Source of the DNA: Candidatus Omnitrophota bacterium
GTDB lineage: Bacteria; Omnitrophota; Gorgyraeia; Zapsychrales; Fredricksoniimonadaceae
DNA: 60,048 bases
Direction of reading: 5' to 3'
Assembly: GCA_043742785.1 (NCBI GenBank)
Contig: JAYTXU010000019.1
Span: forward strand, 1-60,048
Shown here: piece by piece, positions 3,099-60,048 of the stretch
Layout of the letters: each line of letters starts with the position of its first letter
Position numbering within the stretch: position 1 is the first letter of the stretch
Made by a program: the position numbers and the translations under genes
The notes under the pieces: model-generated
The model's database searches: none
Told to the model about the DNA's origin: nothing
What the model saw: the letters and a program-made list of their open reading frames with translations, nothing else

Positions 3099-3101
3099 TA
3101 A

Positions 3102-7187: not shown

Positions 7188-7586
7188 TTAATTAGCAATA
7201 ACTCCTATGTTTGGTGAATTCGCACCAAGCACACAATGATCTGGCAACTGAGTAGCACTAAAAATATACCCTGTTTCACATAAGAATACTGAAGCTGAGT
7301 AAGAATGACCATTAATAACAAGTGGAGTAGGTACATTATATTTATAAGCGTGATTAGGAGTATAATTAAGTGTACCGATAGAAACAGCATTATTATAAGC
7401 AACCCAAAAAGCTCCTTTAGCTAATTCTTCTAAGACAATTTGATCCACTTGAGCATGGCTGGTTTTACTTTGACTCATGCTTTGAGAAAAGATAGTCATA
7501 CTCACAATGCTGATCACCATTATAATCATCATAACGATGATTATAATGACTCCTGATTGATTTGCTATTTTTCCCTTTTGAAACAT
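7188..7586 (-). CDS. Minor pilin / pseudopilin (PilX/GspK-like)
   Basis: Class III signal 'NQSG|VIIIIVMMIIMVISIVSM' with no Glu+5, as expected for PilX/K-type subunits. Confidence 0.6.
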   Translation of the reverse strand: MFQKGKIANQSGVIIIIVMMIIMVISIVSMTIFSQSMSQSKTSHAQVDQIVLEELAKGAFWVAYNNAVSIGTLNYTPNHAYKYNVPTPLVINGHSYSASVFLCETGYIFSATQLPDHCVLGANSPNIGVIAN

Positions 7587-8098: not shown

Positions 8099-8503
8099 TT
8101 AATTTGACCCCGATACAATGTGTACATGACTACTGCCCAACGCCCTGCATAAATCCCAAACGTCCATAACCCTACCCATGGATGAATGCTGATCAACACG
8201 AACAAAAATATTCTGATTCTTAAAGTTAATTTTAATTAAACTCTTTTTAAGCTCATTGAGAGTAACCACCTTACCGTTAAAATAAAGCACATTCTCAGCC
8301 GTAATTGCAATTGTTTGATCCTCCTGCAAACCTTCACTAAGCAAAGCTTTTGGTATACGAATTTCAAGGCCTGCTGGTTTAGAGAAGGTTGAACAAAAGA
8401 TGAGAATTAATAAAACTAATAAGAACAAATTCATAGCTGCAAAAGCTAGGATAGGATGCAAAGGAAAAAGATCTTCAGTTACCTCATTTAACTGCATATA
8501 CAC
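8099..8503 (-). CDS. exbD: ExbD/TolR family protein, degenerate (Asn at the conserved Asp position)
   Basis: TM, then 'GLEIRIPKA', 'IAITAENVLYFNGK', 'IFVRVD...MGRVMDVWDLCR'. Confidence 0.75.
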   Translation of the reverse strand: MYMQLNEVTEDLFPLHPILAFAAMNLFLLVLLILIFCSTFSKPAGLEIRIPKALLSEGLQEDQTIAITAENVLYFNGKVVTLNELKKSLIKINFKNQNIFVRVDQHSSMGRVMDVWDLCRALGSSHVHIVSGSN

Positions 8504-24479: not shown

Positions 24480-24507
24480 TTAATACCGCATTCCCAAAAT
24501 ACGAATA
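24480..24507 (-). repeat. Diverged duplicate of the argG 3' end
   Basis: 26/28 identical to 25071-25098; reads IRILGMRY* versus IRIWGMPY* in argG. Confidence 0.9.
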
Positions 24508-24509
24508 GC

Positions 24510-24758
24510 CTACGCTGCCTGCAATACGGAAAACCTAGCTTTAAGCGGTATTCTTTGCGCTTTGGAATTCGTAAAATGCTCTGTAAAATCCACAATAGTA
24601 AAACCAAGCACTTCTTTTGTCTTTAGGTCTCGGCGGACAATCACTCCATCATCCATCAGTTCCCCAATAGTTTCTCGAGGTTTGCCTTCCGTAATATAAA
24701 GAACGTCTGCTTCCTTATCATACGAAACGGTTAACTGATCAATTTTTTGTTTAGCCAT
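24510..24758 (-). CDS. DUF2283 family protein (putative antitoxin)
   Basis: 'SYDKEADVLYI', 'DGVIVRRD...EVLGFTI'. Confidence 0.85.
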   Translation of the reverse strand: MAKQKIDQLTVSYDKEADVLYITEGKPRETIGELMDDGVIVRRDLKTKEVLGFTIVDFTEHFTNSKAQRIPLKARFSVLQAA

Positions 24759-25045
24759 ATTATCTTACCTCCTCTGACCGAGTCACTAATAAAAGCTGTC
24801 TTAATACGGTTATCTCTTAAAGAAACAACAACGACCTTATATAAGTTATTTCTAAGATCTTTATGATAAATCCATCGATCATGCTTAGATTTGTCCTCTA
24901 CAATCGCAAACGGATCTAAAAGAGTGTCTTTGATGAAATCAACCGGATCTTTAATACAGTGCTCACGCCGGATATGCTCATACCCTGTTGGAGATAACAC
25001 AAACGAACGGCCATCTTTATCTTTGAATTGTATAGATTTAGTCAT
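24731..25045 (-). CDS. Small putative RelE/BECR-fold nuclease toxin paired with DUF2283
   Basis: 'YEHIRREH', 'DTLLDPFAI', 'VVVV...RIKTAF'; overlaps the DUF2283 start. Confidence 0.5.
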   Translation of the reverse strand: MTKSIQFKDKDGRSFVLSPTGYEHIRREHCIKDPVDFIKDTLLDPFAIVEDKSKHDRWIYHKDLRNNLYKVVVVSLRDNRIKTAFISDSVRGGKIIWLNKKLIS

Positions 25046-25070
25046 AACTACAAATCTTATTCACTCTCAG

Positions 25071-26234
25071 TTAATACGGCATTCCCCAAATACGAATAAA
25101 TCCTTCAGATAATCTTGGATCAAAAATATCTTTAGCGCCATAGGTGGCTAACTCTTCCTTGTAACGAGAAAAAGGAGATTTGCGGCCAACGACACTACAA
25201 CTTCCCTTAAATAATTTCATACGGACAACACCGCTAACACGTTTCTGTGTTTCATTAACAAATGCGTCAAGTTGTTGCTTTAAAGGCGTTTCCCATAACC
25301 CGTAATAAGTTAATTCCGCATATCGAGGTGAAATCAATTCCTTATAATGCAATGTCTCACGATCTAAAACCATTGCTTCTAATTCTTTGTGCGAAGTTAT
25401 CAAAATCGTCCCGGCTGGGTTTTCATATATTTCACGAGATTTAATACCCACCAATCGATTCTCCACCATATCCACACGGCCAACACCATTGCGTCCGCCT
25501 AATTCATTAAGTTTCTGAATCAATTCAACAGGTTTATACGTCTTACCATTAACCTTAACTGGGATACCTTTGGAATATTCAATCTCCACATACTCAGGCT
25601 TATTGGGACATTCTAAAGGATTCTTGGTCATCAAATAAATTTCTTCTGGTGGCTCAACCCAAGGGTCTTCCAAGATACCGCATTCAATGGAACGACCATA
25701 AAGATTAATATCCGTCGAATATGGACTCTTCTTTGTAACGTCGATTGGGATCTTATGCTTTTTGGCATAATCAATTTCCTGATCCCTAGTTTTAAATTCC
25801 CAAGTACGAAGTGGCGCTTGTAGTTCTAAATGTGGAGCTAAAATCTTAGCTGTTACTTCAAAACGGACCTGATCATTCCCCTTCCCCGTACAACCATGAG
25901 AAATTACATCCGCTTTTTCTTTTTTCGCCACGGCAACCTGATGCTTGGCAATTAAAGGACGTGATAAAGCCGTCGCTAAGAAATACTTGCCTTCATAAAC
26001 GGCATTAGCTTTAATAGCTGGAAAAACATAATCTTTTACAAACTCTTCCTTCAGATCCAAAATATAGACCTTCGATGCTCCCGTTGCTAATGCACGCTTT
26101 TCAATAATTTTAAAATCACTACCTTGGCCAACATCCGCCATAAAAGCAATCACTTCATACCCCTTATCCTTGTACCAACGGATTAAACAGCTCGTATCTA
26201 ATCCTCCCGAATATGCTAAAACGACCTTTTTCAT
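25071..26234 (-). CDS. argG: Argininosuccinate synthase
   Basis: 'VVLAYSGGLDTS', 'ALSRPLI', 'HGCTGKGNDQVRF', 'ENRLVGIKSREIYE'; true start ATG 26234 with GGAGG SD. Confidence 0.98.
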   Translation of the reverse strand: MKKVVLAYSGGLDTSCLIRWYKDKGYEVIAFMADVGQGSDFKIIEKRALATGASKVYILDLKEEFVKDYVFPAIKANAVYEGKYFLATALSRPLIAKHQVAVAKKEKADVISHGCTGKGNDQVRFEVTAKILAPHLELQAPLRTWEFKTRDQEIDYAKKHKIPIDVTKKSPYSTDINLYGRSIECGILEDPWVEPPEEIYLMTKNPLECPNKPEYVEIEYSKGIPVKVNGKTYKPVELIQKLNELGGRNGVGRVDMVENRLVGIKSREIYENPAGTILITSHKELEAMVLDRETLHYKELISPRYAELTYYGLWETPLKQQLDAFVNETQKRVSGVVRMKLFKGSCSVVGRKSPFSRYKEELATYGAKDIFDPRLSEGFIRIWGMPY

Positions 26235-46437: not shown

Positions 46438-47961
46438 ATGAAATCAATTTTTGAACCCCCTCTACTTAGCTTTTTCTTTTTTTGCATCTTACTATTTGCC
46501 GGATTCTCTGTTTTTAAAGATTACGGCGTCCATTGGGATGAATATAATAATCAATACATTGGTCATGCCTGGAGAATATACACAGCAGATGTTCTGCACA
46601 ATGGATCTATTGCTAACACTCCTGCCCCCCCCACTGAGCTTATGGACTTGCTTCACGGCCCCATTATTGAAATACCCTTAAATTATTTAAAGAATATTTT
46701 TCAATTAATCAACCTAAGAGATGTTCTTCTTTTTAGACATTATTGCTGTTTCTTGTTATTTTCTTTAGGAGTTTACTTTTTTTACTTATTATGTAATCTT
46801 TATTTTAAGAATTGGAAAATTGCGCTCTTAGGATGTTTGTTTCTCGTTTTAAGTCCAAGAATTTTCGCCCACTCATTTTATGATACTGTTGATATCCCCT
46901 TCCTTTCATTTTATGTCTTAAGTATTTATACCCTTCTCAGATGGTTGGATAAGAAAACCCTTCTCAATGCTGGTTTTCATGCCTTAGCTTGCACCATTTT
47001 AATCGACATTAGACTTATCGGAGTAATCCTCCCCTTGATATCAGTATTTTTCTATCTTTGGAATATTATTAAAACTCAAGATACTAGAAAAAAAGAAACT
47101 TTAAGTTTACAGTTATTTCTTTACACCTCTTTTTTAATCATCCTAATTATTCTTGGATGGCCGTTATTATGGCAAAACCCAATATTAAACTTCACAAATG
47201 TACTACAAACAACCTTGCACGCCAGCTTTCCTTATTCAGTCTTATATTTAGGAAATGTTTACATCGGTGACCATCTGCCTTGGCATTATGGCCCCGTATA
47301 TTTACTACTTACAACTCCTCTATTTTACAGTCTTTGTTTCTTCATTGGTTTCTTAAATTCTCTAAAACAATTAAAAAGAGATACGGTTATCCTTCTAATC
47401 TGTTTCTTTCTTCCTTTATTATTAACTCATGGCAAGCTCTATGATAGCTGGAGACATTTATTCTTTATTTATCCTATATTTTTAATATTCTCTCTTAAAG
47501 GAATATCAACCCTCTGGCATTTAAAGACCTCCTTTCGTCCAATAATAATCCTAACAACCGTTCTAACTTTAAGCCAAATTGGTATCACCATGAAAAAAAT
47601 CCATCCTTTTGAAAATGTCTATTTCAATCGATTAGCTGGAAAGAATATGCAGGAAATAAAAAATAAATTTGAATTAGATTATTGGGGGCTTTCCTATAAA
47701 CAAGCCTTAGAATTGATTCTCAAAAATGATCCCGATAAGATCATCCCCATAGCTGTAGATAACCCCCTTTCTCCTTTGATTCGAAATAATCTAAATATCC
47801 TTTCTAATGAAGATAAAAACAGATTTAAAGAGGTTTCTTTAAAAGACGCTAAATATCTTCTGACAAATTATAGGCAACACCCAGAAGAATATCCTTATCC
47901 TGAATATGGCTCAATCAAGCTTGGGAATGCAAAAATTCTAGGAATTTATCAATTAAAATAA
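46438..47961 (+). CDS. Polytopic GT-C glycosyltransferase (ArnT/PMT-like)
   Basis: 'DYGVHWDE' acidic loop, 'SPRIFAHSF...DIPF', 'PWHY', 'YDSWRH..F', 'DYWGLSY'; 10 or more TM. Confidence 0.75.
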   Translation: MKSIFEPPLLSFFFFCILLFAGFSVFKDYGVHWDEYNNQYIGHAWRIYTADVLHNGSIANTPAPPTELMDLLHGPIIEIPLNYLKNIFQLINLRDVLLFRHYCCFLLFSLGVYFFYLLCNLYFKNWKIALLGCLFLVLSPRIFAHSFYDTVDIPFLSFYVLSIYTLLRWLDKKTLLNAGFHALACTILIDIRLIGVILPLISVFFYLWNIIKTQDTRKKETLSLQLFLYTSFLIILIILGWPLLWQNPILNFTNVLQTTLHASFPYSVLYLGNVYIGDHLPWHYGPVYLLLTTPLFYSLCFFIGFLNSLKQLKRDTVILLICFFLPLLLTHGKLYDSWRHLFFIYPIFLIFSLKGISTLWHLKTSFRPIIILTTVLTLSQIGITMKKIHPFENVYFNRLAGKNMQEIKNKFELDYWGLSYKQALELILKNDPDKIIPIAVDNPLSPLIRNNLNILSNEDKNRFKEVSLKDAKYLLTNYRQHPEEYPYPEYGSIKLGNAKILGIYQLK

Positions 47962-48023: not shown

Positions 48024-51000
48024 ATGAAATATTCTTCCACCCACGATATCTTACATAAACTGATGACCCAACGTATCCTCATTTTAGACGGAGCGATGGG
48101 TACTATGATCCAAAAATATAAGCTCACCGAAAGCCAATACCGCGGTGAACGTTTTAAGAATTATCCTCTCGATATTAAAGGCAACAACGACCTTTTATCT
48201 TTAACCCAGCCGCAAATTATCGAGGATATCCACAGCGAATATTTGAAAGCTGGCGCTGATATTATTGAAACAAACACCTTCAATAGTAATCGTGTCAGCA
48301 TGGCTGATTATAAAATGGAAGATTTAGTCTACGAACTGAATCTTGCTTCCGCCCAAATTGCTAAAAAAGCAGCAGAAAAATCCTCAAAAGAAAATCCCAA
48401 CAAACCGCGTTTTGTGGCCGGTGCTATTGGCCCAACAACCCGCACAACATCTCTCTCTCCAGATGTCAATAATCCAGCGTTCCGTGCTGTTAACTTTGAT
48501 CAATTAGTAGAAGCCTACACTGAACAATTACGCGGACTGATCGATGGCGGCGTCGATCTACTTCTCATCGAAACCATCTTCGATACCTTAAACGCTAAAG
48601 CTGCTATCTATGCGATTGAAACCTATTCAGAAAAAATTGGATTAAAATTACCTTTGATCATTTCAGGAACCATCACCGATGCCAGCGGACGAACTCTCTC
48701 TGGCCAAACCACAGAAGCTTTTTGGATTTCCGTCAAACATGCCAAACCTATAGCGATTGGTCTTAATTGTGCCCTAGGCCCAAAAGACATGCGTCAATAC
48801 ATTGCTGAACTCTCCAGAATCGCCAATACCTCGATCAGCTGTTATTCCAACGCCGGACTTCCCAACGCCTTTGGGGAATATGATTTAGAGGCTAAGGAAA
48901 TGGCCGCTATCATCAAAGAATTTGCCCAAAGCGGTTTATTAAATATCCTTGGTGGCTGCTGCGGAACCACCCCAGCGCATATTCAAGCAATGGCAGATGC
49001 TATTAAAGATTTTTCTCCTCGATCAATCCCTAAACTTACACCCCAAAGCTCCTTCTCAGGATTAGAGCCGTTGATCATTCGAGATAACAGCAATTTTGTG
49101 AATGTTGGCGAACGCACCAATGTCACTGGTTCAAAACAATTCGCCCGCTTGATTATTGCAGGACAATTTGATGAAGCCTTAGTGGTCGCCCGTCAGCAAG
49201 TCGAAAACGGCGCCCAGATGATTGACATCAACATGGATGAAGCCATGCTTAATTCTTCCCAAGCTATGACCACCTTCTTAAATCTCATTGCTTCAGAACC
49301 TGATATTTCTAAAGTCCCTATTATGATCGATTCCTCCAAATGGTCAGTTATTGAAGCAGGTCTTAAATGCGTTCAAGGCAAGTCCGTCGTTAACTCCATC
49401 AGCCTTAAAGAAGGTGAAGCTTCTTTTAAAGAACAAGCTCGCAAGGTTCTTTATTATGGAGCTGCGGCCATTATCATGGCCTTTGACGAAAAAGGTCAAG
49501 CTGATACAGTGGAAAAACGTGTCAGTATCTGTAAAAGAGCTTATAAAATTTTAACCGAAGAAATCGGCTTTGCCCCTGAAGATATTATCTTTGACCCTAA
49601 CATCTTTGCCATCGCAACCGGCATCGAAGAACACAATAATTACGCTAAAGATTTCTTTGAAGCAACCCGTTTGATCAAACAAGCCTGTCCAGGATGTTTA
49701 ATTTCCGGAGGTGTTTCGAACGTCTCCTTCTCTTTTCGTGGACAAGATACTGTAAGAGAAGCCATGCACTCCTCTTTTCTATATCATGCCATCAAGGAAG
49801 GAATGACCATGGGCATCGTGAACGCCGGGATGATCACCGTCTATGACCAAATCCCTAGAAATTTTCTAGAAATCGTTGAAGATGTCATTCTCAACCGCCG
49901 TCCTGATGCAACCGAACGTTTAGTCGGCTTTGCAGAAACGGTCAAATCTAAAGGTGAAAAGGTCGAAGAAGAACTCGCTTGGCGGAAACTTCCAGTAGGA
50001 GAACGTCTCTCCTATGCCCTTGTTAAAGGAATTGTCGAATTTATTGATGCTGATACCGAAGAAGCCAGAGCAAACACCAACCGGCCGCTGGATGTCATTG
50101 AAGGCCCCTTAATGAATGGGATGAATGTAGTGGGAGATCTTTTTGGTGCTGGAAAAATGTTTTTGCCTCAGGTGGTTAAAAGTGCCCGGGTAATGAAAAA
50201 GGCTGTCGCTTATCTGACTCCTTTTATTGAAAAAGAGAAAGATCAAAAAAATACCAAGGTGGCTGGAACCGTTGTCATGGCTACCGTCAAGGGTGATGTT
50301 CATGATATTGGAAAGAATATTGTAGGAGTTGTTCTTGCCTGTAATGGATTTAAAATTATTGATCTTGGAGTCATGGTCTCCTGTCAAAAAATACTCGATG
50401 AAGCTAAACTAAATATCGCAGATATGATTGGCCTTTCTGGTTTAATTACTCCCTCCTTAGAGGAAATGGCCTATGTCGCTTCTGAAATGGAACGTCAAAA
50501 TATTTCGATTCCCCTTCTTATAGGAGGAGCAACCACTTCACCGGCGCATACAGCTGTTAAGATTGAACCTGCTTACACAAAAGCTCCTGTCATCCACAGC
50601 AAGGATGCTTCCAAAGCGGTGGGTGTTTGCCGCTCATTAATGGATCCCCAACTTAAAGAAAACTTAATTAGTAAAACCAAAGCCGATTACATTATGCTTC
50701 GTCAGGAACATTTAAGCCTGCAAACTGCTAGATCTTTTGTTCCCATTGAAAAGGCTAGACAAAAAGCTCTAATCACCGATTGGAAAGAAATAACTATCAC
50801 TAAGCCATCCTTCTTAGGTGTTAAAACATTTAAAGACTTTGATTTAAATACCATCCGTTCCTACATCGACTGGTCACCGTTTTTTAATACTTGGGAATTA
50901 AAAGGCAAATATCCTCAAATTCTCAAAGATTCCACCTATGGCGCCGAGGCTAGCCGTGTGTATAACGATGCGAATACTCTTCTCGATGAAATCATTGCTA

Positions 51001-51710
51001 AGAGGCTTCTTAAAGCAAATGCCGTTGTGTGCTTCTATCCTGCTAATTCAGTGAGAGATGATATTGAATTGTATACCGATGATAGCCGCAAAAAAGTTCT
51101 AGACGTTTTCTATAATCTAAGACAACAAATCATTGTACGTGAAGAACAAGCTCTTCTTTCTCATGCGGATTACATCGCGCCTAAATCCTCAGGGGTTAAA
51201 GATTATATCGGAGGCTTTGCTGTAACAACCGGTATAGGATTAGATGAATTAGTCAGAATCTTTGAAGATGATCTTGATGATTACAAAAGCATTATGGCTA
51301 AAGCGGTGGCTGATCGTTTAGCTGAAGCTTTTACAGAATTGATGCATGAGAAGGTTCGTAAAGAACTTTGGGGTTATGCTTCTGATGAAAATCTCAACAA
51401 TGAACAAATTATTCTAGGAAATTATCGCGGTATTCGCCCAGCACCTGGTTATCCTGCCTGTCCGGATCATACAGAAAAAGCTACTCTTTTTAAACTATTA
51501 GACGCCACCAAAAACACGGGCATTACTTTGACTGAAAGTTTTGCCATGCTTCCAACAGCAGCCGTCTGCGGCATGTATTTTTCCCACCCTCAATCTAAAT
51601 ACTTTTCTTTAGGAAAAATTAACAAAGACCAAATAGCCCTCTACGCCAAACGTAAGAATATGTCAGTGCAGGAAGTTGAAAAATGGCTGGGGCCGAATTT
51701 GGGATATTAA
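48024..51710 (+). CDS. metH: Cobalamin-dependent methionine synthase
   Basis: '[10 protein letters not shown]', 'GGCCGTTP', '[10 protein letters not shown]', B12 motif '[11 protein letters not shown]', '[12 protein letters not shown]'. Confidence 0.99.
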
Positions 51711-52363
51711 ACCTTTTTCGCTAAACGATGCAACTCCTCATTAGCCAAGGCAGATACTTTTTTTCTGACCGTACGTGAAAAATATTCTCTTTCAGTTTTG
51801 GTTAAAACTTCGCCTTTCAGTTTCTTTTTAAAAAGTTCTTTCTGCTTGGGAGAAAACACTTGGGACAAAGAAAATTCTAAAGACAATTCTTCATGCTTGG
51901 CATTTAAATTCTTTACCTCTTTTGATTCCCCTGTTAAATAGTTCTCAAAAGCCTTTTTGACACGTTCCATACTTAACCGATAACCCCCGACCTTAACTTC
52001 TAGGACAGAAAAAGCACACAATGACTTAAGCCTTACCTTTTCTTTAAAAGATAATTTAGCCACGTAGGTCTTGGCCCAATCAAAATAAAGATCATTGGCC
52101 TTATATAGTGCCAGGGACAACAGAAACAAGCCTTTCAACGTCTCCTTGGCCTCTTTTGAGCCCAATAAGGCCTGTAACTTGGAAAAGTCAAAACTACCCT
52201 CCTTAGTCGCATTAACCAACATGACGGGAAAACCTTCAAGGAAACGCACATTCTTGGACTTAACCACCTCAGCTAAGGTTTGATTAACATCCAAAACCCC
52301 TTCAGCTTCCAAGAGTGGGTACCCAAGGCGACCAAGTTTCTCTAATAATTTTTTATTGTCCAT
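51707..52363 (-). CDS. Hypothetical partner of the nucleotidyltransferase (possible antitoxin/HTH)
   Basis: AAGGAG SD before ATG 52363; basic C-terminal '[26 protein letters not shown]'; overlaps the upstream NTase stop. Confidence 0.6.
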
Positions 52364-52964
52364 GAAATTTCTCCTTGTCTGCCGAAAGGCAGGCTTCTTT
52401 AAATACTCGCTCATAATTTTCCCAATTCTTAATCAATCTATCTTCCGCAATATCATATTTAGCTGTTTCCATATAACGTTCTTTAAGCCTCTCCATTTTA
52501 ATTTCATTACGCCTCGCCCTAAATAACATCAAACAATCTTCAACATCAACTGTCGTACCCCGAAACAACTTACTAACAATCAAATCATACTCATTAAGAA
52601 TACCTATATAAATATAAGAAAGCTCTTTAACGACAACATGATTCTCTTTTTCTATGGAAGATTCCAGTAATTCTGTCGTATGGACTCTCTTTCCCTTAAA
52701 AAGATCAAAAATAAACACTTCACCTTCTTTTCTCCACCCTGAGCCAGTTTCTTGTGTGTACCCTAGCTGTTTTAATGTCTTTATCAAATAATCGTATTCT
52801 TGATCTATAGGAATAAGCAAATCGACATCCTTGGTCGATTCCTTAATTCCCCAAAGGGTCATTGCTGTTCCTCCACAAGCTATTAAATGAACCTTCTTAT
52901 TAAGAAATCTATTCCAAAGTCCAAGTGTTTGCAATAAATCCGTTTTTGTTAGACGATATTCCAT
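52353..52964 (-). CDS. Pol-beta-like nucleotidyltransferase (DUF6036/AbiEii-like)
   Basis: 'LIACGGTAM.L.G.KESTKDVD' (GG..T.D.D signature), 'DLIVSKL.RG...D.ED'. Confidence 0.75.
   Translation of the reverse strand: MEYRLTKTDLLQTLGLWNRFLNKKVHLIACGGTAMTLWGIKESTKDVDLLIPIDQEYDYLIKTLKQLGYTQETGSGWRKEGEVFIFDLFKGKRVHTTELLESSIEKENHVVVKELSYIYIGILNEYDLIVSKLFRGTTVDVEDCLMLFRARRNEIKMERLKERYMETAKYDIAEDRLIKNWENYERVFKEACLSADKEKFHGQ
52377..52394. repeat. CCTGCC/GGCAGG-family mini-hairpin, in frame in the NTase 3' end
   Basis: GTCTGCC-GAAA-GGCAGGC; encodes ACLSAD. Confidence 0.55.
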
Positions 52965-52990
52965 ATAATTGTCCTTTTATATACACTTTA

Positions 52991-53050
52991 TTGTACTTAT
53001 TTGTACAACTACTTGTGCTTAAGCATACAATATTATGCTATTCTTGTCAA
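52991..53050 (-). promoter_or_regulatory. Promoter and candidate operator of the NTase operon
   Basis: TTGACA (53050-53045), N17, TATGCT (53027-53022); palindromes TTGTAC-N6-GTACAA (52991-53008) and TGCTTAAGCA (53016-53025). Confidence 0.6.
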
Positions 53051-53177
53051 ACTTTTATTATTACCTAAAAAAGCGGCATATAATACATATTGTTAGGTAT
53101 CATCATTATTGCACAGATTAAAAACAATCTAAAAAATGGCTGGGATGGCCTTCCTCTTACTTTTTCACAAAATGGAT

Positions 53178-53224
53178 TTTATCAATTTCCGTCTTGTGGC
53201 CGGCTTAATCGCCGGCGAAAACCT
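53178..53224. repeat. 47-bp direct repeat, copy 1
   Basis: 39/47 identical to 54699-54745; the two copies bracket the AAA gene. Confidence 0.75.
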
Positions 53225-54546
53225 CATTTTTGTAAAGAAAGTCCAATAAATCTCTCAAGATGGTCAGCTAAAAATATTGGAATATTAAGAAGGTTACCGT
53301 CTTTTTTCAAATTCTTTAACGAGAATCTCACCCGTACCCGCGGGCTGTATTGCTTGTCATATAAAGCAAGGCTTTTGCCGCGTACATTGTTATCTGATTT
53401 GACTTCCACAGGTAAAATATCATTGGCGCGCTGGATAGTGAAATCAACCTCAGCCGTCGAACCAGAAGACCAGTATCTTGGGCTAACTTCATACTGGGCT
53501 ACAAGACTTTGTAAAATATAATTCTCAGTAAGCGCCCCTTTAAACTCTGAGAATAACCGATTGCCTTCACCAAACGATGCCGGATCAAGAAATGCCAATC
53601 GCCGCAAAATGCCAACATCAACCACATAAAGCTTAAACGCGGACAAATCATCATACGCTGATACAGGAAGACCCGGCTTGGAATTTCGATAAACTTTATA
53701 TACAAGGCCGGCATTAGATAGCCATGTCACGGCATCCTCGTACTCCCTTGCTCTGACCCCCGGTTTAACTGCCTTATAAATAAACTTCTTGTTTTCTCTC
53801 GAAAGCTGGGAAGGAATGGACGACCAAATATACCCTAACTTGGCAATATCCTTTTTTTCCGCGTGTTTTGAAAAGTCGAGCTCGTAAGCATCCAATATAT
53901 CCCGCAACACCTTTTGGACAAGTGGGATATCCTGTTTTTCAGCCCAGGCTTGCACCGATTCTGGCATCCCGCCAGTAATAAAATACATCTTCAGCTTTTC
54001 ATGCAACTGGTTAAAGAAAATATCCGGTATTGGCTCCAATAAACTAATATTATTTATGTATGTCACAAGCCTCTCTTCTCCCATTGCCAATAAGAATTCT
54101 GTAAAAGTCATCGGATACATTGTCAAGAAATCTACCTTCCCAACGGGAAACGTAGATGGTTTAGAAACCCTGACTCCCAAGAGCGATCCCGCGCAAGCAA
54201 CATGATATTCTGGGGCATTCTCAAAAAAGTATTTTAAAGTATTAAGCGCGGCGGGACATTCCTGAATTTCATCAAAAATAATGAGAGTTTTTCCAGGAAG
54301 GATAGGCGCGCCATTGACTAGGGAAAGCTGTTGAAGAATTCTTTGCGGATCCTTGGTCTTTTCAAAATATTGCTTTAATTCAGGCTGTTCGTCAAAATTA
54401 AAATAAGCTGTATTTTGATACTGTTTTGAACCAAATTCTTTTAAGACCCAAGTCTTGCCAACCTGCCGCACGCCCCTTAAAATAAGCGGCTTCCTTTTAA
54501 CGGACCTTCCCCATAACTCTAATTGGCTCAATATTAATCGCTTCAT
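53224..54546 (-). CDS. AAA_14 ATPase with DUF4143 (PD-(D/E)XK-like C-terminus)
   Basis: GVRQVGKT, 'IIFDEIQ', 'AGSLL', 'GGMPE', 'KLY..D.G', 'EVDF...PVEVKS'. Confidence 0.9.
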   Translation of the reverse strand: MKRLILSQLELWGRSVKRKPLILRGVRQVGKTWVLKEFGSKQYQNTAYFNFDEQPELKQYFEKTKDPQRILQQLSLVNGAPILPGKTLIIFDEIQECPAALNTLKYFFENAPEYHVACAGSLLGVRVSKPSTFPVGKVDFLTMYPMTFTEFLLAMGEERLVTYINNISLLEPIPDIFFNQLHEKLKMYFITGGMPESVQAWAEKQDIPLVQKVLRDILDAYELDFSKHAEKKDIAKLGYIWSSIPSQLSRENKKFIYKAVKPGVRAREYEDAVTWLSNAGLVYKVYRNSKPGLPVSAYDDLSAFKLYVVDVGILRRLAFLDPASFGEGNRLFSEFKGALTENYILQSLVAQYEVSPRYWSSGSTAEVDFTIQRANDILPVEVKSDNNVRGKSLALYDKQYSPRVRVRFSLKNLKKDGNLLNIPIFLADHLERFIGLSLQK

Positions 54547-54596
54547 AATAAATTCCTCCAAAACTTTAGCAAATAGAAATCACCTTATTAGTCATG

Positions 54597-54620
54597 TTTA
54601 TGTGATTAAAATCACATAAA
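54597..54620. promoter_or_regulatory. Palindromic operator upstream of the AAA gene
   Basis: TTTATGTGAT-TAAA-ATCACATAAA, containing TGTGA-N6-TCACA; lies just downstream of TTGCGT-N16-TATACT. Confidence 0.55.
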
Positions 54621-54698
54621 AACAACTAAAGTATACACGAAATACCAAAAAACGCAATTTCAAGAATTTTTATTGGGATTGCTTCTTTGCGGAAAGGA

Positions 54699-54745
54699 TT
54701 TATCAATTTCCATTTTGTAACCGGCTAAATCGCGGGCGGAAGCCT
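54699..54745. repeat. 47-bp direct repeat, copy 2
   Basis: 39/47 identical to 53178-53224. Confidence 0.75.
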
Positions 54746-54867
54746 GGCATCCGTCGATCAATACAACGAACCTACAAGGTTCGTAAATTTTCTAAATCCG
54801 CGCTATAAAGAATGGCAAAATAGAATAATTGGGTGTATTAACAAAATCTAAATTTATTGGTGGGAAA

Positions 54868-55038
54868 CTATTTAAACCTTTTTAACTGACTCGCAGGAAT
54901 TTTTACCACCTTACCATTCTTCCAAATAATTAATGGCTCACCGCGCATTTTTCGATCAGCAATGACACCTCGTACTGCTTTCTTGATTGCTTTCTCTGCT
55001 TTTTGTGAAATAATTTCACCTTCTGCTTTCTTAATCAT
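54868..55038 (-). CDS. 56-aa protein coupled to the Zeta-like ATPase (missing from the ORF track)
   Basis: MIKKAEGEIISQKAEKAIKKAVRGVIADRKMRGEPLIIWKNGKVVKIPASQLKRFK*; ATGA overlap with the upstream stop; GGAGG SD. Confidence 0.75.
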   Translation of the reverse strand: MIKKAEGEIISQKAEKAIKKAVRGVIADRKMRGEPLIIWKNGKVVKIPASQLKRFK

Positions 55039-55610
55039 GTCTTGCCTCCAGATTTAATCCAGTGCTGGTAAAGTTTTTTATCAAAGACTTGTAATGCTTT
55101 TTCATTAAATTTTACAACCAAAACAGGATCCATCCCAGAATTATCAAAAACATCCCACGAATTAGCTAAAGGCATATATAAGGTAAAAAAATTACTTAAA
55201 CTCCTCGTTAATCTTCTTTTTACATCCACATCAGGCACATGATGTCCACCCTGTTTGACTCTTTGTTTAATTCTTTCTTTAGCAAGATGTATGTTAGGTA
55301 TCCATAAAAAGAAAATATGAACAGAATAGCCTTTTAATTTAGCTTCATTGATCAAATGAACATATGTCTTACCTGCCAAAGTCGTCTCAAAAGAAAAATC
55401 GACCTTACGACTAATGAACCTATCGATCTCTTTTAGTAATAATTTACCGGCTTTAATACTAGCCTCAGCAGGAGTAAATGGAGCAATCCCCATAGCAATC
55501 AAATCCGCATTCACAAAATTGGAACATTTCGCATAATGCGGCAGGAACTCCTTAGCAAATGTTGTTTTACCCGCACCATTGGGACCAGCAATAATATACA
55601 GTTTAGGCAT
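55035..55610 (-). CDS. Zeta-toxin-like P-loop kinase/ATPase
   Basis: 'IAGPNGAGKTT', 'FVNADLIA', 'FETTL', 'RV..GGH.VP', 'DNS'. Confidence 0.88.
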   Translation of the reverse strand: MPKLYIIAGPNGAGKTTFAKEFLPHYAKCSNFVNADLIAMGIAPFTPAEASIKAGKLLLKEIDRFISRKVDFSFETTLAGKTYVHLINEAKLKGYSVHIFFLWIPNIHLAKERIKQRVKQGGHHVPDVDVKRRLTRSLSNFFTLYMPLANSWDVFDNSGMDPVLVVKFNEKALQVFDKKLYQHWIKSGGKT

Positions 55611-55850
55611 GGAGTTAGTTTAACACCACCTATAAAGCAAAACAAGAAAACCCTCCATAAAATTATACCAAAGAACCTTTGAGCATCTTCAAGTTATCAT
55701 TTATAATCGACCTATTGTGTATTAGATTTAACCATCCAAACACCACCGAAGCCATTGAGTTGAGTTTTTGGGATTAATTCAGAAGCTAGAAAAACGATAT
55801 GTTAACCTGCAAATTGTCATACAAAATGAAGTTGACGAATTCAGAAATAT

Positions 55851-57008
55851 ATGAATAATAATCCTATGATTAGAAGGACAACTTCATTTCCAACGGATCA
55901 GAGCTATTTCTTGTTTGGGCCTCGAGGCACAGGAAAAACAACATGGGTTCTTGCTCAATACCCAGAAGCCATATATATCGACTTGTTAGATGCCGATATT
56001 CGGGATCGTCTTTTAGCGCATCCCAAGCAATTATCAGATATTATCCCGACAGGCACCAAAGAATGGATCATTATAGATGAGATCCAATTTGTCCCGGCTC
56101 TGCTTCACGAAGTCCATCGGCTAATATCCACCAAAAAATATAAATTTGTTCTAACTGGATCAAGCGCCCGTTCGCTTCGAAGAAAAGGCGTTAATTTATT
56201 AGGAGGTCGTGCGGCGACGCGTTTTTTCCATCCGCTTACAGCCATGGAATTGGGCAAGCAGTTTGACTTACAGCGTTCGCTACAGTATGGACATTTACCT
56301 TCGGCATCTTTAGGAAAATCTCCTAAGGTATACCTTAAAGGGTATATTCTGAATTACTTAAAGAATGAAGTTAAGCAAGAAGGTTTGACTCGTAATCTAG
56401 GGGCATTTTCACGATTCTTGGAGGTTGCTAGTTTTTCGCAAGGAGGGATACTTAATTATACAGAAATCGCCCGGGAAGCAAGTATTAATCGTATGGTTGT
56501 AATGAATTATTTTGATATTTTAGAAGACCTTTTAGTAGGGATGCGTTTACCAGTATTTACCAAGAAGGCTAAACGTCGTCTTGTCATGCACCACAAATTT
56601 TATTATTTTGATGTTGGTATTTATCGTACTATTCGTCCTATGGGGCCTTTAGATATGCCGGAGAGTATTTCCGGAACAGCTATGGAAACCCTGATTCTTC
56701 AAGAATTGCGTGCGATTAATGACGCTTTGGATTTGGGGTATGAAATCTTTTACTGGCGCACCCCCAATAAAGTTGAAGTTGATTTTGTGTTATATGGAGA
56801 AAAAGGGATCCTTGCCATTGAAAGCAAATCTTCCCAAAGACTCACTTCGGATATGTTTCGGGGGTTAAAAAATTTTAAAAGCGATTATCCTGTGGCTAAA
56901 TCTTATTTGGTTTATGGCGGCACTCATCGAGAATATCGTGATGATATTCAAGTCATCGGTGTTCAAGAATTTCTGCAAACTTTACCAAAGATACTAAAGA
57001 ACTTTTGA
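55851..57008 (+). CDS. AAA_14 ATPase with DUF4143, second paralogue
   Basis: GPRGTGKT, 'IIIDEIQ', 'LTGSSAR.L', 'L.GRA', 'KFYYFD.G', 'EVDF...AIESKS'. Confidence 0.9.
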   Translation: MNNNPMIRRTTSFPTDQSYFLFGPRGTGKTTWVLAQYPEAIYIDLLDADIRDRLLAHPKQLSDIIPTGTKEWIIIDEIQFVPALLHEVHRLISTKKYKFVLTGSSARSLRRKGVNLLGGRAATRFFHPLTAMELGKQFDLQRSLQYGHLPSASLGKSPKVYLKGYILNYLKNEVKQEGLTRNLGAFSRFLEVASFSQGGILNYTEIAREASINRMVVMNYFDILEDLLVGMRLPVFTKKAKRRLVMHHKFYYFDVGIYRTIRPMGPLDMPESISGTAMETLILQELRAINDALDLGYEIFYWRTPNKVEVDFVLYGEKGILAIESKSSQRLTSDMFRGLKNFKSDYPVAKSYLVYGGTHREYRDDIQVIGVQEFLQTLPKILKNF

Positions 57009-57080
57009 GCGCTTTAAAATTATCGTTTCTAATCAATGCCTTGCCGATTAGAATTAAACATCTAAGACAAAAATATAAAA

Positions 57081-57120
57081 GAAGCTGAGAAATGGCTGGT
57101 ACCAAATTTAGGATATTAAA
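57081..57120 (+). repeat. Diverged duplicate of the metH 3' end
   Basis: GAAGCTGAGAAATGGCTGGTACCAAATTTAGGATATTAAA reads EAEKWLVPNLGY*, versus [12 protein letters not shown] in metH. Confidence 0.9.
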
Positions 57121-59184
57121 ATGACATCTTCTCTTAAAAAAAATTGGTTCATCTATTTATTCATTCCCATTCCCTTTATTTTTTATTGGTATACTTGTCT
57201 TCCTTCCATTGGATTAGGCGATTCTGTATTATTCATTCACGCAATTAAACAACTTATAATCAAAACATGGGTAAATAATCATAACGTAACAGCTATTTGG
57301 GGCTGGTTCTTCCAGTTTCTGCCAATTGGTGACATTGCTTATCGAGGAAATCTCTCCTGCGTTTTCTCCAGCAGCATAGCTATATGCATTTTTTATACTT
57401 CAATTTATTTGCTTCACCGTTGTTGGATGACCGCAATAGTTTCTTCATTATTTCTTATGATCTCCCACTCAGTGTGGTGGCATGGGACAGATTTAGCTGA
57501 TTATTCCATGAATACCGTCTTTGTAACAATAGCCCTTTACCTCTATGTAAAACTATTCAAAACAGGTCTTGCTAAATATCTATACATCCTTTTCTTCGTA
57601 TGCGGGTTAGCTGTTTTTCAACATTACTTGTTAGGAAGTTTATTAATAGGAGCGATAGCCACACTTGTCACAAGATTATTAAAACGTAAAGAAAAAGCAT
57701 GGCCTTTGTTATGGAAAGCCACTGTTTGCTTCTTTATAGGACTGATCCCTTGGCTACTAACGTTTTCACATGATGTAAGCATAAACCACAGCGTCACCCA
57801 AACAATTTCAGGCATGTTGGGAGGCCCATTTAAAACGCTTTTCTTTAAACGACCATTATGGAGTGGAATAGTCGAATATTTTACACTGCTTTTTCTCCAA
57901 TTTCCTTCGCCTTACCTTTTAATAATTGCTTTGGGTTCATACTTCTTTTCAAGAACATGGAAATTGCATGAATGTTCTGTGGGTATTATTCTCACAATTA
58001 CACCTGTTGTTGTTTTTGGATTAGGCATCGATACATGGGCTTTATTTGCCCAAATGATTTCAACCTATATTATTCTTGCTTTCTGGGCTTCGTTTGTTAT
58101 TTATTGGATTATCAATCATCCATATTTTAACAAATCTCTTTTATTACGAACGCTCCTAACAATAACAACTATCTTTTCTTTAGTTTGGACAATCTATTTT
58201 TATGCGCATTTGAGCCACTGGGGAGAGGATCCAAGAAATATTTGGTCCCCTCGATTTAATAATTCTTATACATTTAATTACTACCACCTCAACGAATTTC
58301 TTGCCAACCCTAACAAAAAAAACTACCACGACATATCCGATGCCTGTCATTTAATGCTAGCTAAACTACCCCCGTACGCAGAGTATTGGGATAACGACTC
58401 CAGATTGTTTTTCCAAATGAAAGAATATTACCAACAGTACTACCATAAAAGACTCGATTTAAATATCCAACTCGTCAATTCTTTTGGTTTTCCCAATTGG
58501 GGTTCTGATAAGAACACTTTTGGTCAAAGATTGAAAAACGCATACCTTAGCGGTAAAAATCTCTTTTTATCATCTTTAGGGCATCCCTTCGCTTCTTTAT
58601 TAGCAAATCTTCCCGATAAAAGTAAATATCAATTTAAAAGATTCTATCTCAACGATAAATTATGGGTTTATAAACTCATAACTATTCGAGACGCCAATCT
58701 TACAAATGAAAATTACCTCTGGACTAGGTGGGATTTCTTACCGACAGATAAATCTGTTTTAATTAACCTATCTTTAGATAATGTTTTGGATTTTCATGAA
58801 GGAAATGTCTTTTTACAACAAGACATGAGTCTTTTTGGGCCATTATGGAAAAATGAAGATCAAGTTTTCTTTAGTCCAGAGAAACAAGGATCAAGTATCG
58901 GATTCTTATTAAGATTCAATCAATCATTCAAAGGAAACTTAACTATAAATCTCACAACTGCTTTTGATGCTGCTATCGTTGAGGTCTTGTTGAACAATAA
59001 ACCTTTAACAAAAGAGCCTCTTGATCTTTATACCATTAGTGTGAGTAATCAGAAGTTTGAATTCTCAAATATTATATTTGAAAATGAGAATAATATTCTA
59101 TCGATACGCGTTATTGGAAAAAATGATAAATCGAGTGATATGAAACTAGGGGTTGATACGATAGAAATTAGTCCTGCCTTTTAA
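57121..59184 (+). CDS. DUF2723 (TMEM260-like) GT-C membrane protein with a C-terminal beta-sandwich (CBM-like) domain
   Basis: N-terminal 'Y.YT.LP.I..GDS', 'LP.GDIAYR.NL', many TMs; C-terminal 'QDMS.FG..W', 'DLY', 'IG.N.KS....GVD.IEI'. Confidence 0.65.
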   Translation: MTSSLKKNWFIYLFIPIPFIFYWYTCLPSIGLGDSVLFIHAIKQLIIKTWVNNHNVTAIWGWFFQFLPIGDIAYRGNLSCVFSSSIAICIFYTSIYLLHRCWMTAIVSSLFLMISHSVWWHGTDLADYSMNTVFVTIALYLYVKLFKTGLAKYLYILFFVCGLAVFQHYLLGSLLIGAIATLVTRLLKRKEKAWPLLWKATVCFFIGLIPWLLTFSHDVSINHSVTQTISGMLGGPFKTLFFKRPLWSGIVEYFTLLFLQFPSPYLLIIALGSYFFSRTWKLHECSVGIILTITPVVVFGLGIDTWALFAQMISTYIILAFWASFVIYWIINHPYFNKSLLLRTLLTITTIFSLVWTIYFYAHLSHWGEDPRNIWSPRFNNSYTFNYYHLNEFLANPNKKNYHDISDACHLMLAKLPPYAEYWDNDSRLFFQMKEYYQQYYHKRLDLNIQLVNSFGFPNWGSDKNTFGQRLKNAYLSGKNLFLSSLGHPFASLLANLPDKSKYQFKRFYLNDKLWVYKLITIRDANLTNENYLWTRWDFLPTDKSVLINLSLDNVLDFHEGNVFLQQDMSLFGPLWKNEDQVFFSPEKQGSSIGFLLRFNQSFKGNLTINLTTAFDAAIVEVLLNNKPLTKEPLDLYTISVSNQKFEFSNIIFENENNILSIRVIGKNDKSSDMKLGVDTIEISPAF

Positions 59185-59190
59185 AGATAT

Positions 59191-60048
59191 TTAATGTAAA
59201 CCTTGCTTATCAGAAACTCTGATCGAATTTAATATTACAGGCAACGCGTTATCACTTAATTTATCTGGCGTAATCCATCCTACTGAATATAAAGCAATAG
59301 AATTCCTTGTTAGAGAGTTTGTGCAAAATTGTTCCATGATTTCTGTTTTAGAATCTGTTTTAATAACTTTTAAATCGATTAATTTTAAAAAAGTAAAGTT
59401 GCGTTTGACCTGAATGGATGACCATTGTTGTCCATCTGGCGTTGAGTAATTTAATGTAACACACCTTCTCTCAGGTAAGAAAACAGAGGTAGCTGCCTTT
59501 ACATGACAGCTACTATTCCAATACCAACCCGCAAATTGATCCCCTAACCCTTTAACGGAATAGGAATGACCACAATAAAACTCCTCAGGAAGAGTTGGAT
59601 TAGATAGAGCTTCTTCATTAAATGAAGCAACAATATTATTTATTTCATCTTTATTAGTAACATTCCCTTCTCCTATAAATGATCGCTGAGCAAGCCTAAA
59701 AAAAGTTTGATCACAAATATAAAAAAGACCGCTGGATATCAAAATAAATACAGTTAGGAGAACCTTTCTCCAAGTTATGTAAGTACTTAACCAAAACAGA
59801 ACTAGTAAAATCAGAGCGATAATAATGGCACAGAAAGCAATTGAGAAATCAGATGAGTACCTTGAACTAATACTATACAAATTTATATAAAATATAAATA
59901 AACACCCAGAAACTAACAATCCCCAGACGATTGTATAAAAAAATATCTTTAAAAAGAGGGGATTCTTCTCATTCGGAGACAATCGCCACTTAAAGAAATT
60001 AAAGAATATTAAAAATAAAGAAGCAATAGTAAGAAGTACAAAATGTGA
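59191..60048 (-). CDS. Hypothetical membrane protein, 5'-truncated by the window edge
   Basis: Frame stays open from 59982 to 60048 (SHFVLLTIASLFLIFFNFFKWR...); several TMs followed by a Cys-containing soluble domain. Confidence 0.55.
   Translation of the reverse strand, partial: SHFVLLTIASLFLIFFNFFKWRLSPNEKNPLFLKIFFYTIVWGLLVSGCLFIFYINLYSISSRYSSDFSIAFCAIIIALILLVLFWLSTYITWRKVLLTVFILISSGLFYICDQTFFRLAQRSFIGEGNVTNKDEINNIVASFNEEALSNPTLPEEFYCGHSYSVKGLGDQFAGWYWNSSCHVKAATSVFLPERRCVTLNYSTPDGQQWSSIQVKRNFTFLKLIDLKVIKTDSKTEIMEQFCTNSLTRNSIALYSVGWITPDKLSDNALPVILNSIRVSDKQGLH

Follow-up and report, generated by a model that had tools for sequence, protein, structure and literature searches.

Nested, repeat-bracketed gene cassettes without a recombinase at the 3′ end of metH in a Candidatus Omnitrophota bacterium

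How do small toxin–antitoxin (TA) and defence modules come to lie where they do in bacterial chromosomes? In phylogenies such chromosomal modules are highly mobile, they usually have no recombinase nearby, and their movement is poorly understood. The question is raised in concrete form by a 60,048-bp stretch of DNA from a Candidatus Omnitrophota bacterium (the window, which is the whole of contig JAYTXU010000019.1, here C19), part of a metagenome-assembled genome (MAG) of 1.9 Mb in 85 contigs with a GC content of 37% and a completeness of 82%; among named relatives, the best protein matches come from Candidatus Omnitrophota. TA-like and candidate defence genes lie here immediately after the stop codon of metH, and a copy of the last codons of metH stands beyond them, in front of the next gene. 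A preliminary description had taken the interval for a single 5.4-kb island. We found instead four cassettes, each with a direct repeat of its own. Together the units span 5409 bp, and the 5.4 kb is very probably a composite of separately inserted, repeat-bracketed cassettes. Our reading of the locus as a whole, which we regard as reasonably probable, is that four cassettes lacking a recombinase entered in succession, each becoming bracketed by a repeat of the sequence in which it landed, most likely through host functions that duplicate the target.

The outermost repeat is formed by the end of metH. The gene (48024-51710, + strand) is intact and encodes a cobalamin-dependent methionine synthase of 1228 aa, with five Pfam domains (E 1e-18 to 5e-123) and a tail conserved in 12 relatives. 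Its working end, J0 (51672-51711, +), is the left copy of a 40-nt direct repeat; the right copy, at 57081-57120, is a displaced metH end that together with 13 nt of left flank makes up J3 (57068-57120, +). As the preliminary description had observed, 34 of the 40 positions are identical. The alignment is ungapped with a period of 5409 bp and ends at 40 nt; its local-alignment score of 25 lies far above the highest that 500 shuffles gave (11.5). The translation of J3 is still EAEKWLVPNLGY followed by a stop. Three of the six differences are synonymous (GAA/GAG, CCG/CCA and TTG/TTA), again as first described, and the remainder change Val to Ala (1 nt) and Gly to Val (2 nt); the synonymous pattern itself is not significant, with four of the six differences at third codon positions (binomial P about 0.10). 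Because the displaced copy carries Val at the last of these residues, where all 12 aligned relatives have Gly (once Ser), at least part of its divergence is decay of a no-longer-coding copy freed from selection. As to which end fits the lineage consensus, a question that the preliminary description had posed, this Val departs from the 12 relatives and the congeners favour neither copy as native.

The two edges of the interval also proved to be as first reported. At the right edge, TAA-A-ATG joins J3 to the resident downstream gene, which encodes a 687-aa TMEM260-like/PMT_2 membrane glycosyltransferase (57121-59184, +; Pfam; previously called DUF2723). Its start lies one base past the TAA of J3, and J3 provides its AGGA Shine-Dalgarno sequence. 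At the left edge, TTAA at 51707-51710 is common to the metH stop and to the stop of a convergent 218-aa gene. Pfam and PADLOC annotation and an integrase scan support the claim that foreign TA and defence genes without an integrase begin exactly at the metH stop, with the displaced metH end before the next gene.

Between these edges the interval falls into four modules of three unrelated families (Pfam, PADLOC): a nucleotidyltransferase (NTase) pair, a Zeta-toxin-like kinase with a small partner, and two AAA_14-DUF4143 ATPase genes, referred to here as no. 1 and no. 2. Four repeat pairs, each with a score reached by 0 of 300-500 shuffles, define periods of 1453, 3956, 1521 and 1326 bp. The first two (J0 to J1 and J1 to J3) add up to the outer 5409 bp, and subtracting 1521 and 1326 from 3956 leaves about 1109 bp, which is the zeta-like pair. 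The NTase pair thus forms a unit of 1453 bp with the metH-end repeat, and the zeta-like pair one of about 1.1 kb inside the displaced metH end. The internal repeat pairs sit exactly at the boundaries between gene modules, and these boundaries share no common inverted-repeat site, being direct repeats of unrelated sequence.

The element that reveals the nesting is J1 (53112-53144, +), a partial displaced metH end with a left flank that does not come from metH, which serves as the left repeat of the 3956-bp inner block. Positions 53112-53143 match 57068-57099 at 24/32, a score that none of 500 shuffles reached. Against J0 the match is 18/33 and consists essentially of the core AAAAATGGCTGGG alone (13/13), which 1 of 500 shuffles reached. 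J1 and J3 have in common the 13 nt that adjoin the metH-like part on its left, which are absent from J0. Entry of the inner block into J3, with duplication of its left 32 nt, flank included, would explain why the right half of the metH tail is missing from J1. In a first reconstruction we placed the zeta-like pair first and the NTase pair last; this required the metH tail to be aberrant or J1 to have suffered a secondary deletion, and we replaced it. Entry of the inner block into the displaced copy is preferred because it explains the similarity of the J1 flank to J3.

ATPase no. 1 is bracketed by a 54-nt repeat, D1a (53170-53224, +) and D1b (54692-54745, +), giving a unit of 1521 bp; the score is 27.5, where the best of 500 shuffles scored 14.5, with 83% identity over a 47-nt ungapped core. 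An exact-pattern search for D1 in 185,579 species genomes returned no match, which speaks against D1 as a dispersed element. A third metH-like copy at about 54650-54690, suspected from a MAFFT alignment, was not significant against J0 or J3, the D1 part alone being repeated. ATPase no. 2 lies between c1 (55661-55739, +) and c2 (56987-57065, +), which agree at 57/79 positions, or 58/85 over a wider stretch, with a core score of 18.5 against a shuffle maximum of 13; the unit is 1326 bp, and c2 includes the last codons and stop of the gene. A promoter-like TTGAGC-17-TATAAT in c1 (55679-55707) lies upstream of ATPase no. 2, and a weaker counterpart in c2, TTGAGC-17-TCTAAT (57005-57033), upstream of the TMEM260-like gene. 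Conceivably, the promoter region of the downstream gene was itself the duplicated target.

The repeats and their nesting are observed; the order of arrivals is inferred from them by parsimony, as follows. The NTase pair would have landed first, in the last 40 nt of metH, leaving the working end J0 and the displaced copy J3 before the next gene, whose ribosome-binding site J3 would still supply. The zeta-like pair would then have landed inside J3, duplicating 32 nt (J1 and the left part of J3). The third and fourth arrivals would be the two ATPase genes, both related to the candidate defence type PDC-S01, whose insertion into non-coding sequence on either side of the zeta-like pair would have duplicated 54 nt in one case and about 80 nt in the other. 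On this account the resident gene would be the source of both metH ends.

The preliminary description had named a chimeric assembly as something that would overturn its finding. Logan contigs of the sequencing runs SRR23617268 and SRR22198267 match the window with 100% identity at 49035-56803 (within a 55.4-kb Logan contig), 51459-55269 and 56774-59217, and both junctions were thereby assembled independently. The two Logan sides overlap by just 30 nt, inside ATPase no. 2, and this overlap is the sole link between the junctions; the open reading frame (ORF), the DUF4143 domain and the alignment with homologues are all continuous across it. We conclude that the island is not a chimera, because independent assemblies carry its junctions and because the ORF and domain run unbroken over the overlap. 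Exact-protein look-ups returned the same structure only, from two runs. The Logan assemblies of both runs break at the 30-mer concerned (56774-56803), which is unique in the genome; the break may come from an assembly-graph branch contributed by another strain or by a related community gene.

Could a conventional integrative element account for the outer repeat? Integrase-driven islands and prophages enter the 3′ ends of protein genes carrying a replacement end, and cis-mobilizable elements (CIMEs), such as those at the fda end in Streptococcus thermophilus, lack recombinase genes of their own. By analogy, one element could have entered an attB in the metH 3′ end by means of a tyrosine or serine recombinase, since lost or acting in trans, with the 40-nt repeats as attL and attR. 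Direct repeats at a gene 3′ end with a regenerated end are the classic footprint of such an event, a profile search for Phage_integrase (PF00589) gave 12 matches on other contigs of the genome (two of them short and interrupted by stops), and the MAG is just 82% complete. The same search gave no match on contig C19, however, and there is no recombinase in the island or elsewhere on the 60-kb contig; tRNA and Rfam scans of the contig gave no match, the island has no transposase or attC-like site, and Pfam, NCBIfam and PADLOC scans of all its ORFs detected no mobility genes. The 40-nt repeat occurs in two copies only in the 1.9-Mb genome at up to 22% mismatch, with no third copy that could stand for attP or attB. 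The element would moreover be split by three further, unrelated repeat pairs, and the same gene families elsewhere are bracketed by repeats without a common core, in units of 0.8-1.9 kb. We therefore exclude a site-specific recombinase encoded in cis, and consider a single integrative element at this site very doubtful. An integrase acting in trans is scarcely more credible, because the repeats of related cassettes have no common core and vary tenfold in length. The same two properties, together with cassette ends that are not fixed, make a transposase with defined ends unlikely.

Another way to view the locus is as a recombination hotspot, at which strains swap DNA through conserved flanking genes and the short repeats are leftovers of local duplication, or chance. 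Four congeners with metH were found, and the genes downstream of it differ in all of them. Each has one metH end, three of the four have no cassette after it, and the downstream genes are not orthologous. Two of them (G004 and G005) carry a large membrane protein gene on the same strand, 50 and 5 nt past the metH stop, which resembles the reconstructed empty arrangement without being detectably orthologous, and a third (G003) has a convergent membrane protein gene. The fourth (G001; L002 466-2012) has an AbiEii/AbiEi pair convergent to metH, the two stops overlapping in a TTAA just as they do in the window, with a HipA-like gene further on; no flanking repeat and no duplicate of the metH end were detectable around this AbiE cassette. 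The preliminary description had expected relatives to show variable cargo and an empty allele: the former was borne out by the AbiE pair, and no true empty allele was found, the genomes compared being congeneric rather than conspecific. Close relatives of the TMEM260-like gene were likewise absent, both among 60 relatives at E<=1e-20 and in JGI metagenome contigs. The turnover downstream of metH would suit a hotspot, as would the composition of the island, which gives no foreign signal, its GC content (37.6%; window, 37.8%) being that of the genome. Replacement guided by the flanks, however, makes no duplicated gene end, and the repeats are far above chance, stand exactly at cassette boundaries and, in related loci, are enriched about 18-fold over shifted controls. 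We consider this explanation highly improbable.

The last point comes from the same cassette families in other genomes, where we scanned relatives of three families for direct repeats up to 450-500 nt to each side. As controls we used shifted pseudo-cassettes in the same loci for the NTase and ATPase no. 1 families and, for the zeta-like family, shuffles only (40 per locus). Relatives of the NTase cassette, gathered by an alignment-based search rather than with a single protein, number 339 in species genomes across many phyla; none was found among 2.9 million viral contigs (IMG/VR) or 72,556 plasmids (PLSDB). A flanking repeat (score >=16) was present in 15 of 52 NTase-pair loci from many phyla, compared with 3 of 186 shifted controls, with repeats of 19-143 nt and units of 1.34-1.75 kb. 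For the ATPase no. 1 family the same threshold was reached in 6/64 loci and 0/114 shifted controls (repeats 26-104 nt, units 1.53-1.91 kb), and for the zeta-like pair 9 of 29 Omnitrophota loci had a repeat scoring at least 17, above the shuffle maxima (24-148 nt, units 0.8-1.37 kb). The repeats are locus-specific and all different, range from 15 to 148 nt overall, and are often near-identical (141/143, 69/70, 103/104 and 53/53); several contain the stop codon of the adjoining long ORF. The bracketed units are too small for any recombinase, their ends stand at no fixed distance from the genes, and their sizes agree with those of the four units deduced in the island.

Elsewhere in the source genome, similar arrangements surround other genes. 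On the same contig, at 24480-25098, the last 27-28 nt of argG (IRIWGMPY and stop) are repeated 591 nt downstream with 26/28 identity, the two copies flanking genes for a 104-aa PBECR2-like nuclease and an 82-aa DUF2283 protein without a recombinase. Contig C53 has a third AAA_14-DUF4143 gene (3154-4308, -) between 32-nt repeats at 3069-3101 and 4378-4410 (25/32, reached by 0 of 300 shuffles); one copy contains the stop of an upstream 282-aa gene, and the surroundings are a glycosyltransferase cluster. Contig C74 repeats the end of a 148-aa gene (2286-2319) at 3030-3063, with 33/34 identity, beyond a single ORF6N/Rha-like gene, and ends soon after. On contig C2, copies of a 36-nt palindromic hairpin at 57801-57836 and 59531-59566 flank a gene for a 325-aa protein containing a helix-turn-helix and a RelE/ParE-like pair, adjoining a fourth AAA_14-DUF4143 gene (60809-62008) and a BrnT/BrnA-like pair. 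Being a palindromic hairpin, the repeat at 57801 and 59531 was not counted as a gene-end duplication.

What, then, produced the repeats? The proposal that we favour is that insertion proceeds through host repair, replication or recombination functions that would duplicate 15-150 nt of the target. That host functions are the mechanism is a serious but still tentative possibility, drawn by analogy with the restriction-modification (RM) units discussed below. The main competitor holds that a cassette travels as a circle or fragment carrying a copy of its target, here the metH tail of another strain, and enters by RecA-type, Campbell-like recombination, in which case the working metH end would be partly donor sequence and the repeats would have differed from the moment of entry. 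This generalizes the inference of the preliminary description that a functional metH end from a diverged allele arrived with the incoming DNA and displaced the resident one. The same layout arises formally by this route, with hybrid left and right copies; the 6/40 differences between J0 and J3 are easily explained if the copies were already unlike at entry; and a different cassette, AbiE, occupies the metH stop of G001 with the same TTAA overlap. Against it, the inner insertions lie in decayed sequence (J3) or in sequence unique to the island, as the D1 search indicates, where a pre-existing matching tag is improbable, and none of 80 relatives of the NTase cassette lies at a metH end. Nor did any of 62 other metH genes have a duplicate of its tail, the best downstream match of any to its own tail being 23/39, and metH as a general hotspot is thereby ruled out. 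The many near-identical repeats elsewhere would need conspecific donors, and the first acquisition of a tag goes unexplained. Duplication of the target is therefore favoured as the origin of the repeats, on account of the inner insertions, of the lack of an NTase cassette relative at another metH end and of the near-perfect repeats at so many other loci; entry by a carried copy is a possible but rather unlikely source of the repeats at this locus.

Two Omnitrophota species illustrate how the two processes may be combined. Both have the NTase pair at the end of manC, which encodes mannose-1-phosphate guanylyltransferase, between repeats at 5855-5922 and 8175-8242 in one (L064) and at 5844-5896 and 7311-7363 in the other (L086). 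In L064 the cassette is separated from the displaced manC copy by an additional gene, for a TIM-barrel-like protein of 260 aa. Within each genome the repeat copies are 96-98% alike and share species-specific bases, whereas flanks and cassette are 73-78% identical between the species. This pattern, which speaks for entry guided by a carried copy, is better explained by copies that keep recombining with each other, or by repeated re-entry by way of a copy borne on the cassette, than by a single ancient target duplication. We think that entry of this kind, or recombination between copies, probably also operates.

Several points weigh against successive target duplications as the history of the metH locus. 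The manC copies just described are closer within a genome than orthologous copies are between species. At metH itself, the J1/J3 pair is short (24/32), and the c1/c2 repeat takes in the last codons of ATPase no. 2, which is awkward for pure target duplication. Identity within the four repeat pairs is 72-85%, which means either that the insertions happened long ago or that the copies were unlike from the outset. The order of arrival is a parsimony reconstruction. Finally, no conspecific empty site was found, and identity of each repeat with a single-copy target is presumed for this locus.

If target duplication is nevertheless how the cassettes entered, the position of the repeats would follow from selection, which would retain only insertions whose duplication leaves intact both the interrupted gene and the signals from which its downstream neighbour starts. 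Gene ends would be the usual address because an insertion into a gene can persist only where the duplication makes that gene whole again. The repeats may later permit excision of cassettes as circles, and re-entry guided by homology in related cells.

How does this compare with systems already known? Insertion with long target duplication was reportedly described for RM gene units by Nobusato et al. in 2000 (Gene 259:99). In the events compiled for RM units, the repeats exceed 30 bp, mobility genes are absent and some repeats overlap gene 3′ ends (PMC2853133); the repeats consist of host sequence unique in the genome, range from 30 to more than 400 bp and vary in length between events (Furuta, Abe & Kobayashi 2010, PMC2853133). 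The cassettes at metH are alike in being small selfish or defence units without mobility genes, bracketed by unique direct repeats of variable length, some at gene 3′ ends. The repeats are longer than 30 bp (40, 54, about 80 and 32 nt), the insert is under 20 kb, and there are no mobility genes and no dispersed repeat. The cargo is different, consisting of TA-like pairs and PDC-S01 ATPases rather than RM genes, and we therefore regard the locus as a variant of that mode of insertion. It is also unlike the RM cases in that a single address holds four nested events, one of which took place within a previously displaced copy, and in that the repeats are older (72-85% identical). Our literature search, which included TA reviews and did not cover all journals, turned up no report of insertion with long target duplication for TA or PDC-type cassettes, or of nested events. 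What is new here is the resolution of an "island" into four nested footprints, together with evidence across phyla that includes shifted controls for two of three families.

Integrative islands and CIMEs resemble the locus in that repeats bracket the insert, the target gene end works and a displaced end lies downstream; CIMEs are recombinase-less as well. The metH cassettes are unlike them in having no integrase in cis, no related integrase-bearing element, no conserved att core, units of 0.8-1.9 kb and unrelated internal repeats. Integron arrays share the one-sided stack of small one- or two-gene cassettes at a fixed address, and TA cargo is common in them. In contrast to integrons, the locus has no IntI, attI or attC-like imperfect inverted repeats, its boundaries are direct repeats of local sequence, and its cassettes stand in both orientations with promoter-like sites that suggest promoters of their own.

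The cargo of the first cassette is a two-gene operon on the - strand. The DUF6036 NTase (52353-52964, 203 aa) matches Pfam PF19502 with 38.8 bits against a cut-off of 23.6; its predicted model (pLDDT 91) has a minimal NTase fold, for which Foldseek returned LnuA, TM1012 and MenT1 at E 3e-4 to 2e-3, and at the sequence level it matches no solved structure. Its partner (51707-52363, 218 aa), the gene whose stop overlaps that of metH in TTAA, is all-helical and matched no Pfam family and no PDB fold. The two genes overlap, and the pair is kept in 70/80 related loci. The upstream region of the operon (52965-53111, -) forms the right end of the 1453-bp cassette and carries a promoter-like TTGACA-17-TATGCT at 53050-53022; its spacing is comparable with the 61-311 nt in relatives. 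As models of such cargo, MenAT1 and AbiEii/AbiEi are alike in their minimal NTase fold and conserved overlapping two-gene operon, MenT1 being among the best structural matches of the predicted model (TM 0.5-0.6); the pair differs from MenAT1 in having a partner without known family or fold and in lacking a sequence-level match to solved structures.

The Zeta-toxin-like P-loop kinase (55035-55610, -, 191 aa) matches PF06414 with 45 bits against a cut-off of 22.3 and has the Walker A motif GPNGAGKT; the match is partial, covering profile positions 79-177 of 199. The kinase occurs in 100 of 401 genomes of the phylum. A 56-aa ORF (54868-55038, -), its presumed partner, lies downstream with a 4-nt overlap and adjoins the kinase in 28/29 relatives; it has no family match in Pfam, NCBIfam or PADLOC. 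In common with epsilon/zeta systems there is a kinase domain with Walker A; unlike in those systems, the small ORF lies downstream (the reverse order) and is not of the epsilon family.

The two ATPases both match PDC-S01 profiles, and a defence role is a candidate function that these matches suggest. ATPase no. 1 (53224-54546, -, 440 aa; Pfam) is annotated by PADLOC as candidate defence PDC-S01 (PDLC04786, E 1e-179) and has more than 8000 homologues, up to 87% identical. Many of its close relatives (78-87% identical; P0122-P0160) are on contigs of 1.4-2 kb, about the gene and its flanks, as would be expected if metagenome assemblies break at cassette boundaries where the gene occurs in several contexts. 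ATPase no. 2 (55851-57008, +, 385 aa; Pfam) is PDC-S01-like (profile E 8e-49) and is only a distant relative of no. 1. The C-terminal domain of the DUF4143 ATPases also gave a weak match, under the Pfam cut-off, to the nuclease-related domain NERD (E 0.008). The cargo as a whole, TA-like pairs and candidate single-gene defence proteins, belongs to gene classes that are generally held to resist loss after acquisition. In the wider neighbourhood, genes resembling GT-C-type membrane glycosyltransferases lie on both sides of metH, a PMT/PMT_2 gene at 46438-47961 and the TMEM260-like gene at 57121-59184.

The metH locus is a readable record of cassette entry, and indicates that small defence islets can grow without a dedicated mobile element. 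The footprint recurs in each family in distant phyla, far above controls for the two families with shifted controls. For annotators, short duplicated gene ends mark cassette boundaries. The mobility of TA modules also becomes testable, through the predicted presence of one repeat copy at empty sites, predicted circles carrying one copy, and dependence on recA or its lack. Beyond this locus, we offer as a speculative extension that cassettes may circulate without any recombinase in Omnitrophota and in many other phyla. TA-like and defence cassettes of unrelated families would enter by generic host-driven insertion that duplicates 15-150 nt of the target, stack into islets behind gene ends and within one another's flanks, and spread via their repeats. 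If true, the movement of TA and defence modules would have a general explanation that depends on no particular enzyme, and what has so far been described only for RM units would apply to them as well.

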